From Candidatus Baldrarchaeum yapensis (GTDB lineage: Archaea; Asgardarchaeota; Baldrarchaeia; Baldrarchaeales; Baldrarchaeaceae): DNA of 32,000 bases. Each line of letters opens with the position of its first letter. Position 1 is the stretch's first letter. Below are positions 22,747 through 27,433 of the stretch, in pieces. Position numbers and translations under genes: made by a program. The stretch covers positions 30,001 to 62,000 of the forward strand of contig JAEOSH010000005.1 in NCBI GenBank assembly GCA_016840465.1, read 5' to 3'. Under the pieces are notes generated by a model that had not been told where the DNA came from, made no database searches, and saw only the letters and a list, made by a program, of their open reading frames with translations.

Positions 22747-23175
22747 TTACTCGACTTTTATCCTAACTCTTTTTCTTTTCTTTGAAGAATCTTCTTTCTC
22801 TTTAACCTCTCGTATAATGAAGGATGATTGAGACTCTTCCTCTTTGATCGCTGGTATGCGGGACTCTTCTTTGGCTATTTCCCTTATGAGACTCGGTTCT
22901 GTGGACTCCTCGTCGAGTCCTATTATTTTTGCATCAGGGTATTTGTTCTTTATTTCCCTACGTAATGCTTCCTTATCGACGTTACCATATGTCTGTACCC
23001 TTACTATTGGTCGTCCCGTTTCGTCATACGTTACCGAGATGGAGTATCCTCCTCCCATTGTCTCCATATCTGGGAACTCTTCAAACATAGATTCCATCCG
23101 TTCAAATATTTCGTCAAATAATCCAAATATGTCAAATGGGCTTCTTCTTTTCCGCCCTCTTGATCTTCTACTCAT
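22747..23175 (-). CDS. Hsp20-N-terminus-like protein lacking the alpha-crystallin domain
   Basis: RRSPFDIFGLFDEIFERME, GYSISVTYDETGRPIVRVQTYGNV and C-terminal IKVE recall crenarchaeal Hsp20 termini. SD GAGGTG. Confidence 0.7.
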   Translation of the reverse strand: MSRRSRGRKRRSPFDIFGLFDEIFERMESMFEEFPDMETMGGGYSISVTYDETGRPIVRVQTYGNVDKEALRREIKNKYPDAKIIGLDEESTEPSLIREIAKEESRIPAIKEEESQSSFIIREVKEKEDSSKKRKRVRIKVE

Positions 23176-23240
23176 AAGGTTGCACCTCAGTTCTCATGTA
23201 AAAGTCTCAGGTAAAACCCTTACGGCAGTGGCGCTTAAGC

Positions 23241-23296
23241 GGCTCAGACGTCGCAGGCTTCCTCATCGATCAGGCTAGCAATCCCTCATCATTGCC
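23241..23296 (-). ncRNA. C/D-box 2'-O-methylation guide sRNA (sRNA-A)
   Basis: Minus strand reads GGCA-[C ATGATGA]-GGGATTGCTAGC(12)-[D' CTGA]-TCG-[C' ATGAGGA]-AGCCTGCGACGT(12)-[D CTGA]-GCC. Terminal GGC/GCC stem; intergenic. Confidence 0.88.
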
Positions 23297-23579
23297 ATAA
23301 TAGGTCTAACACTTATTCTTGACTCCCGTAAGTGAATATTTTTTACGGTGGATATCGAAGATGCATTAGGAGGATGCACATGAGGGACTTCTTTCTAGAG
23401 GTCTGATACTACTGCAACAAAATGTTTAAAAGATTCTTAATGTTAGTACCCCGAAGAGAGGGATCAAGATGAGGGTCTACCTTCCACGCTGATATGTGGA
23501 ATACTTGTAGTTTCTCTCGTTTTCTGCATGAAATAGTGGGTACTGTATTAAGACGTCTGGAGGTGATCGTTCTTGGAGC

Positions 23580-24518
23580 GTGATCAAGTTCCAGTGTGGA
23601 GTGGCCGTGAAAAGGTCAAAGTTTGGAGAAAGTAAGGAGCTACTTATGAGGAAGACCTTTGAAGTTTTGAATCTGGCACTTCGATCGGGACTCGATTATC
23701 TGTGCTTCGATTATGAGTGGAAGAAATATAATCTAACATGTGAGGATCTCGCTACCATCCTTGAAGAAATTGACAGCAATGATGGAAAACTCACAGTTAT
23801 CTTCACAGTTGCTTCTCGTGCAAATGAGTTCCTCATCGAAGGATCCGGTAAGGCAAATGTAGATTCCTTATTACAATTACTAGATTCGTATCCGGATCTA
23901 CTAGCTCTGAACTTGGTGGCTGGGAATCCGGCATACTTATCAGAGGAGGAAAGAGGTCGGTCTGGATCGAGGACTCTTTACATACTTGGCGCTTATGTTG
24001 CCAGTCACGCTCCTACAAATGCAAAAATTCTCGTGGGTACAGAAAACGTACTTAAAACTGCCGTGAAACTGGCAGCGGAATTCGGATACATACCGTTTCA
24101 TTTGTTTTCAGACAAATTGTCCACCGAGTTGAACTATACGTTCAGTAGAACTAGTGGGGTTAGTGCATGTTATGTCCCCTATTCTTGTGTGCTTTCGGAA
24201 AGAGAAGTTGCATTGAAGATATGGAGGTATGTTTTACGGAGAAGTAGCGCATGGGAGATGCTTAGATCACAAAATATAGACCCGAAGATTTTAGTGACTG
24301 CGTTTGAGAACGGTAAACATGAGAAACTGAGTGACCATGCATGGAATGCATTTGTGTCAGTAATGAGATACTTTGTGATATATGGCGACGACCGGGCATT
24401 TGATCGAGAACTAGGGGATTACATCAGCAGTGGCATGCGCCTAGTAATAGGGTTACCGTTAGGGGATTTCGAGAAGGAAGTGCCTCAACTTGCGAGAATC
24501 ATGAGGCGAGAGTCATAA
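23580..24518 (+). CDS. Divergent luciferase-like (LLM/Mer-like) TIM-barrel oxidoreductase-like protein
   Basis: C-terminal half parallels Mer as recalled (KILVGTENVLKTA; SACYVPYS; EMLRSQNIDP; FVIYGDD...YISSGMRLVIGLPLG). SD GGAGGTGAT at 23559-23567; the start could also be ATG 23646. Confidence 0.55.
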   Translation: MIKFQCGVAVKRSKFGESKELLMRKTFEVLNLALRSGLDYLCFDYEWKKYNLTCEDLATILEEIDSNDGKLTVIFTVASRANEFLIEGSGKANVDSLLQLLDSYPDLLALNLVAGNPAYLSEEERGRSGSRTLYILGAYVASHAPTNAKILVGTENVLKTAVKLAAEFGYIPFHLFSDKLSTELNYTFSRTSGVSACYVPYSCVLSEREVALKIWRYVLRRSSAWEMLRSQNIDPKILVTAFENGKHEKLSDHAWNAFVSVMRYFVIYGDDRAFDRELGDYISSGMRLVIGLPLGDFEKEVPQLARIMRRES

Positions 24519-24890
24519 ACGAAGTCTTTTTATTTCTCCATTCACTTTGGGAATTCTTATTTCCAATATGCCGTTTCTAAAAGTTGCCTTGGCGGATTTT
24601 ATGTTACCCGGTGGTGGTATTTCTATCATTTTCCTTAGAGTTCCACGGACGAAAACATATAAGCGGTGACCTTCGCCCCTGATATCTATATCTTCCTTCC
24701 GTGCGTCGAGAATTTGTATTATCACAACAATTTCATCGTCCATTTCGAGTAATTCGTATAACTCATTATCGCTTCTTTCTTTAACGCTATCTGCGTGTTC
24801 CACGGGATTTTCATCGATACCCAGCATTGTGAGTATCGAGTTAAATAATTTTAAGAACTCATCGAATATGTCATGCCTTTTCTTTCCCAT
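24513..24890 (-). CDS. Small heat-shock protein (Hsp20/alpha-crystallin domain)
   Basis: KKRHDIFDEF, ELLEMDDEIVVIIQI..ARKEDIDI, SAKATFRNGILEIRIPK. Confidence 0.85.
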   Translation of the reverse strand: MGKKRHDIFDEFLKLFNSILTMLGIDENPVEHADSVKERSDNELYELLEMDDEIVVIIQILDARKEDIDIRGEGHRLYVFVRGTLRKMIEIPPPGNIKSAKATFRNGILEIRIPKVNGEIKRLRL

Positions 24891-24998
24891 TAACAACACC
24901 TTAAGAGGTTATTATTCGATATGCACAAAAACTTTTTGTTTCTCAATGCAAAAAAGGAGTTTTTGCCATTATATTGGTGTTTTGTAATACCTAATACT

Positions 24999-27371: not shown

Positions 27372-27433
27372 GTATCAGTTGACTGTTTACTCGTCATCCA
27401 GCGCATGTCAGCAAAGGGTGTGCTCATCATCGT
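27372..27433 (-). ncRNA. C/D-box 2'-O-methylation guide sRNA (sRNA-B)
   Basis: Minus strand reads [C ATGATGA]-GCACACCCTTTG(12)-[D' CTGA]-CATGCGCTGG-[C' ATGACGA]-GTAAACAGTCAA(12)-[D CTGA]. The D guide is antisense to the conserved LSU rRNA motif GACUGUUUA. Confidence 0.9.

Follow-up and report, generated by a model that had tools for sequence, protein, structure and literature searches.

A box C/D sRNA gene of Candidatus Baldrarchaeum yapensis with two guides predicted to target domain V of 23S rRNA

An RNA gene of 56 nt was located on the minus strand (23296-23241) of the window, that is, the whole 32,000-nucleotide stretch of contig JAEOSH010000005.1 that was analysed. Judged by its sequence, it is a canonical box C/D sRNA, previously unannotated and of an ordinary kind for archaea. 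Very probably it is a dual-guide sRNA that directs 2'-O-methylation of the host 23S rRNA at the equivalents of E. coli C2461 and G2389. By the rules known for this family (PMC1635284, PMC7994747), L7Ae would bind the C/D K-turn and the C'/D' K-loop and recruit Nop5-fibrillarin. Both guides would then pair with nascent 23S, at two sites of domain V that are separated by 71 nt, and fibrillarin would 2'-O-methylate the nucleotide opposite guide position 5, namely C2461 for the D guide and G2389 for the D' guide. Holding both strands may also aid the folding of this 23S region. Expression and RNP assembly, like the methylations and the folding role, would follow from the same family rules; the boxes, the complementarity to host 23S rRNA, the conservation and the three protein genes were observed directly. 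Genes for fibrillarin, Nop5 and an L7Ae-family protein are present in the host and in four relatives (5 of 5 genomes of the order). The sRNA leaves the methylation mechanism itself unchanged; what it would add for Baldrarchaeia is a guide family restricted to one order, together with two predicted methylation sites in domain V.

The gene, its boxes and the host genome

The host assembly (Ca. Baldrarchaeum yapensis) consists of 2,267,786 bases in 100 contigs with 45.95% GC, and both 16S and 23S genes are present. The sRNA locus was identical in six other assemblies and was spanned intact by single contigs from three metagenome runs, which may be the source of the host DNA. The features of the gene, in the order of transcription, are as follows.

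23241-23296, minus: box C/D sRNA gene, dual guide, 56 nt (box pattern, E-value matches to C/D families, orthologues)
23294-23296, minus: terminal stem, 5' strand, GGC (invariant across 6 sequences, without covariation)
23286-23292, minus: box C, AUGAUGA; AUGAUGU in the sister genus (sequence, alignment)
23274-23285, minus: D' guide, 12 nt; pairs with 23S 2386-2396, predicted N+5 target G2389 (C59:3643); in the host alone, also 12/12 with nt 22-33 of SRP RNA
23270-23273, minus: box D', CUGA; CCGA or CCAA in the sister genus (sequence, alignment)
23267-23269, minus: K-loop linker, UCG, 3 nt; a short stem-loop instead in the sister genus (sequence, alignment)
23260-23266, minus: box C', AUGAGGA; degenerate and G-rich in the sister genus (sequence, alignment)
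23248-23259, minus: D guide, 12 nt; pairs with 23S 2458-2467, predicted N+5 target C2461 (C59:3714), helix 89
23244-23247, minus: box D, CUGA (sequence, alignment)
23241-23243, minus: terminal stem, 3' strand, GCC (alignment)

Boxes C, D', C' and D follow one another in this order, and their GA dinucleotides can form a K-turn and a K-loop. The length of 56 nt and the two 12-nt guides agree with those of archaeal box C/D sRNAs (~50-70 nt, guides ~10-13 nt). All four boxes claimed in the earlier note were confirmed on the minus strand at 23296-23241, and so was its terminal stem, a 3-bp GGC/GCC stem with a single A between the GGC strand and box C. The strict four-box pattern was found 2 times in the 2.27-Mb host genome versus 0, 0 and 0 times in three order-3 Markov genomes, and the relaxed pattern 5 times versus 0, 1 and 0. 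Since the counts lie above those of the Markov controls, the pattern is more than chance.

When the sRNA was searched against Rfam, no family was matched at its gathering score. The top 8 entries of the E-value list were all archaeal C/D families, the best being sR1 (41.1 bits, E 2.5e-09, cut-off 45), and these matches are driven by the boxes. The sRNA thus resembles sR1 (RF01152) and snoPyro_CD (RF00095) in the end-to-end box layout, with 41.1 and 33.7 bits, respectively. However, both scores are below the gathering score of 45 and the guides differ; since these families are defined by their guides, the sRNA does not belong to them. The MFE fold was no better than that of shuffled sequences (z -0.04), as expected of a protein-shaped RNA. 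No covariation was seen in the terminal stem, which never varies in the 6 sequences.

Roughly ten further credible C/D genes were counted in a census of the host genome. A second dual-guide C/D sRNA lies within the window at 27372-27433 on the minus strand (C1 ~57430), and both of its guides match 23S sites less than 40 nt apart. Further unannotated C/D candidates with rRNA complementarity were noted at C9:10783, C38:23482, C51:14529, C56:27513, C64:27717, C68:39171, C69:2185, C74:17499 and C32:27013.

Targets of the two guides

Targets were scanned in the host 23S rRNA and in the assembled part of the 16S rRNA, of which ~700 nt at the 5' end are unassembled, and a Watson-Crick (WC) pair was required at N+5. 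A search for 16S in the four sister genomes (G001-G004) found none. Other C/D RNAs of the host genome match the same rRNA contig, C59, with pair scores of 11.5-13, which indicates that C59 carries the cognate rRNA. The host 23S match at C59:1031-4195 covers 3165 nt versus a 2987-position model, and an AT-richer insert near C59:1790-1880 is possibly an intron or an expansion; the 23S of G001, from the sister genus, likewise has an insert, of ~580 nt.

The best rRNA site for each guide fell in host 23S domain V, at C59:3710-3721 for the D guide and at C59:3639-3650 for the D' guide. The D guide forms a 10-nt duplex at C59:3711-3720 with 9 WC pairs and 1 G:U (U:G at guide position 8), and its N+5 nucleotide is C3714 of C59, equivalent to E. 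coli C2461 in helix 89. The D' guide forms an 11-nt duplex at C59:3640-3650 with 9 WC pairs and 2 G:U (positions 7 and 12), and its N+5 nucleotide is G3643 of C59, equivalent to E. coli G2389, which lies next to helix 88 on its 5' side, at a distance of five nucleotides from C2394 of the E site. The earlier note had already placed the D guide on the helix-89 strand just 3' of the peptidyl-transferase UAACA and had named the C of GUC*GC as its N+5 nucleotide; this assignment, to C2461, holds, but the target letters given there were wrong: the target is not CGUCGCAGGC but CGUCGCGGGC, which is found in the host and in G001 and gives one conserved G:U, the U:G wobble at position 8. For the D' guide it had suggested the entry of 16S helix 39; in that pairing guide positions 3 and 9 are mismatched and the energy is only -11.9 kcal/mol, and the guide fits 23S around G2389 instead. 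Both guides are indeed 12 nt long, but they are not the exact complements that had been announced, and neither has 9 uninterrupted WC pairs in host rRNA.

Taken singly, each guide match is weak: shuffled guides matched as well in 2061 and 856 of 20,000 cases (10% and 4%). The support comes from the pair. The two 23S sites are 71 nt apart, and only 1 of 20,000 shuffled guide pairs had both sites within 100 nt. The longest continuous WC runs in the host are 6 and 5 for the two guides, short of the at least 9 continuous WC pairs of the strict single-guide rule of Lui 2018, which the G001 orthologue reaches with 11. This rule serves target prediction and is relaxed for families and double guides (Lui 2018, PMC6009581); the double-guide score by the scheme of the same study (PMC6009581) is, by our own arithmetic, 39 versus a threshold of 32 for sites within 100 nt. 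The rule of Dennis 2015 (PMC4644070) asks for a WC pair at N+5 with at most 1 mismatch and tolerates two G:U, and both guides pair with their cognate rRNA in this way. The earlier note had named the absence of perfect pairing of 9 nt or more as grounds for giving up the assignment; such pairing is literally absent, but this bar is too strict, since Dennis 2015 allow two G:U. Mismatches at positions 3-5 cut activity and more distant ones did not (PMC1635284). The host wobbles, which occupy positions 7, 8 and 12, avoid this stretch and are therefore plausibly tolerated.

The D' duplex with 23S has an energy of -16.7 kcal/mol versus -21.6 for a perfect guide. Baldrarchaeia are hyperthermophiles by prediction (10.1101/2023.03.07.531504), where a weaker D' duplex matters, and this counts against the dual-methylation model. 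The GC content of the host 23S is 65%. It could be that only the D guide methylates, at C2461, while the D' guide pairs with 2386-2396 as an anchor or chaperone, or drifts, without efficient methylation. Second guides without methylation have been described (PMC4644070, PMC6009581), and the two G:U pairs of the weaker host duplex, the degenerate D'/C' boxes of the sister genus and the CCAA of G002 fit such a loss. Nevertheless, the N+5 pair of the D' guide is a WC C-G pair, positions 2-6 are all WC, the D'/C' boxes are canonical in the host, and both changes in the D' guide relative to the sister guide retain pairing as wobbles, so that we regard methylation by the D guide alone as rather unlikely.

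The D' guide may also, or mainly, target the Alu domain of the SRP RNA in the host, where it would methylate G26 in the loop of the Alu loop-loop pairing; we consider this very unlikely. It pairs with SRP RNA nt 22-33 over 12 of 12 positions (10 WC and 2 G:U) at -21.3 kcal/mol versus -16.7 with 23S, and shuffled guides did as well in only 3 of 5000 cases against the SRP RNA alone and in 45 of 10,000 (0.45%) against a pool of tRNA, SRP and 5S RNAs. However, with ~20 guides in the genome, we estimate that ~0.1 such coincidence is expected. Moreover, the pairing is not conserved: with the SRP RNAs of their own genomes, the sister-genus guides reach a score of only 6. Of the two guide changes specific to the host species, just one favours SRP, and the site lies within a stable hairpin. 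The match is thus probably a coincidence. If it were true, one sRNA would modify both the ribosome and the SRP, for which no archaeal C/D precedent was found in the literature searched, and it is the only reading of this sRNA that would surprise a specialist. The SRP RNA gene itself is at C56:88422-88740 on the minus strand (locus L055; RF01857, 183 bits), and ARAGORN mis-calls it as a tRNA-Ala(agc) with a 390-nt intron.

Still more doubtful is a tRNA target for the D guide, which can pair over 10 bp with 2 G:U with the variable loop and T-stem (GUCGCGGGUU) of many tRNAs, ~10 in number, and would methylate the C near position 48. In Pyrobaculum, a guide directed to the T-stem of 16 tRNA families has been described (PMC6009581), but sRNAs that target tRNA rarely are dual guides (PMC6009581). 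The tRNA score of 9 was reached in 1762 of 10,000 shuffles (18%), and position 2 of the guide is an invariant G that pairs with 23S but is mismatched to the tRNAs. Elsewhere in the genome the guides have perfect 10-11-nt matches; these are not within stable RNAs and were put down to chance. The D guide of the C74 candidate points to 23S C2457 (C59:3710), four nucleotides from the D target of the present sRNA, with only 8 pairs.

Conservation and comparison with known guides

Orthologues were found in 3 of 4 genomes of the sister genus, which belongs to a sister family within the order (G001, G002 and G004), and in the metagenome contigs L045-L047, the sequence from L046 being the same as that of G002. 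They keep both guides while their flanks diverge. No variation is seen across the 6 sequences in the stem, the core of box C, box D or positions 2-12 of the D guide, although the five relatives are close kin and not independent of one another. The sister-genus D' guide differs at two positions, where the host wobbles become WC pairs. In G001, the D' guide makes 11/11 continuous WC pairs with G001's own 23S, which is the strongest independent support for G2389 as a target; the D guide of G001 gains a pair at position 1 with the same 23S. G002 has CCAA as its D' box and a change at guide position 2; decay of the D' arm may therefore be under way in some lineages.

The sister-genus orthologues (L035:74-139, L012:1502-1566, L005:163-229, L045:37-102 and L047:4728-4793) have a stem-closed, degenerate D'/C' region. 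Where the host has its canonical K-loop, they have a short stem-loop between CCGA or CCAA and a G-rich C', with the same two guides. In their degenerate C'/D' and internal stem they are like many snoRNAs. One guide pair on a canonical K-loop in the host versus a degenerate stem-closed C'/D' in the sister family could serve as a small natural test of snoRNA-like asymmetry. The exact D-guide pattern gave 0 homologues in 395 other Asgard genomes, and a covariance model run on 151 genomes gave only two weak matches, of which the one inspected had no boxes. Homologues outside the order were not found among the genomes searched, and the family thus appears confined to it. At L006:1504-1555 (G033, from another Asgard family), a canonical C/D sRNA with unrelated guides was matched only via the common boxes.

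With 56 nt, four near-consensus boxes, 12-nt guides, a K-loop and an intergenic position, the sRNA resembles the archaeal dual-guide C/D sRNAs (PMC4644070, PMC6009581, PMC7994747); dual guides with targets within 100 nt make up 45% of Pyrobaculum sRNAs (PMC6009581). Its two predicted sites set it apart from the seven-species list of Dennis 2015, since neither C2735 (= E. coli 2461) nor G2664 (= 2389) was found by a text search of the supplement (PMC4644070). The same study predicts guides to immediately neighbouring positions in both regions: the D guide of Methanopyrus kandleri sR17 to 23S G2733 (= E. coli 2459), I. hospitalis sR132 to U2734 (= 2460), M. kandleri sR38 to G2736 (= 2462) and I. 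hospitalis sR86 to A2663 (= 2388) (PMC4644070). M. kandleri sR17 and the host D guide have the guide core CCUGCGAC in common. In contrast, the host sRNA differs from all four in its N+5 register and in its unrelated partner guides. The simpler reading is that the likeness reflects convergence or guide shuffling, not orthology.

Guide position 8 (23255) carries a U opposite the universal G2464 that is invariant in the six sequences. The same U stands opposite G2464 in M. kandleri sR17, and a C stands there in sR38; G2464 is G in 7 of 7 archaea aligned by Dennis 2015 (PMC4644070).

The predicted chemistry is that of eukaryotic C/D snoRNAs near the peptidyl-transferase centre. To our knowledge, the equivalent of neither C2461 nor G2389 is a known 2'-O-methylation site in yeast. 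C2461 corresponds to yeast 25S position 2830 (by offset from 2457 = 2826, PMC11121408).

The neighbouring gene and the intergenic region

The sRNA sits in a 404-nt spacer between the divergent ORFs 22747-23175 (minus) and 23580-24518 (plus). The following features belong to its surroundings.

22747-23175, minus: gene for a protein of 142 aa from a small, uncharacterised family of archaea; N-terminal arm Hsp20-like by eye, no Hsp20 domain
23183-23188, minus: SD-like GAGGUG, outside the sRNA, complementary to the 16S 3' end
23212-23216, minus: TATA-like TTTTA, 41 nt before the ATG (sequence, by eye)

The earlier note had called the product of 22747-23175 sHsp-like. This could not be upheld, as no alpha-crystallin (HSP20) domain was detected in the 142-aa protein with Pfam HSP20 or NCBIfam Hsp20 at E 0.1, and no similarity was found to the Hsp20-like gene at 24513-24899. 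A low-confidence model of the protein has a core of ~45 residues (beta-beta-alpha-beta), and a fold search for the protein gave a best Z of 4.3. A related-locus search with the protein found no relative. Members of the family are 98-151 aa long, with named matches from Bathyarchaeia and Hodarchaeota, a conserved YSISVTY...GxxD...YPxAKI core and a C-terminal IxxE tail.

The gap of 65 nt from the sRNA end to the ATG at 23175 on the same strand was confirmed. Given this arrangement, it was proposed that the sRNA belongs to the 5' leader of the mRNA from 22747-23175, which it would regulate via L7Ae-bound K-turns, or needs that mRNA for its processing, a link that we regard as quite improbable. 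The stretch from the sRNA to the ORF contains no terminator-like hairpin, many C/D sRNAs of archaea are processed out of longer transcripts (PMC7994747), and L7Ae regulates some mRNAs via leader K-turns (PMC5539422). However, the sRNA and the gene are unlinked in relatives. The orthologous sRNAs precede cdc48 by 330-400 nt and are divergent from an HTH gene; a search of G001-G004 with the host protein as query did not recover the 142-aa gene, and four homologues of it have no C/D RNA upstream. Furthermore, the L7Ae switch already described acts by direct masking of the SD (PMC5539422), with the K-turn overlapping or adjacent to the SD as in the l7ae 5'-UTR, whereas here the SD is at 23188-23183, at least 53 nt from the K-turns, and the sRNA ends at 23241. 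A TATA-like box also intervenes between the sRNA and the ORF; this TTTTA is possibly the downstream gene's own promoter. Therefore, the sRNA is probably not tied to its neighbour, and nothing supports a regulatory link; simple co-transcription of the two is possible and would be ordinary.

By eye, AT-rich boxes similar to TTTTA were seen 36-47 nt upstream of the four homologues, and an EM promoter motif model gave no positional peak. On the other side of the sRNA, an AT-rich BRE/TATA-like box at 23419-23432 of the window is readable on both strands. With the sRNA ~130 nt and the 23580 ORF ~150 nt downstream of it, the box is possibly a promoter shared by both.
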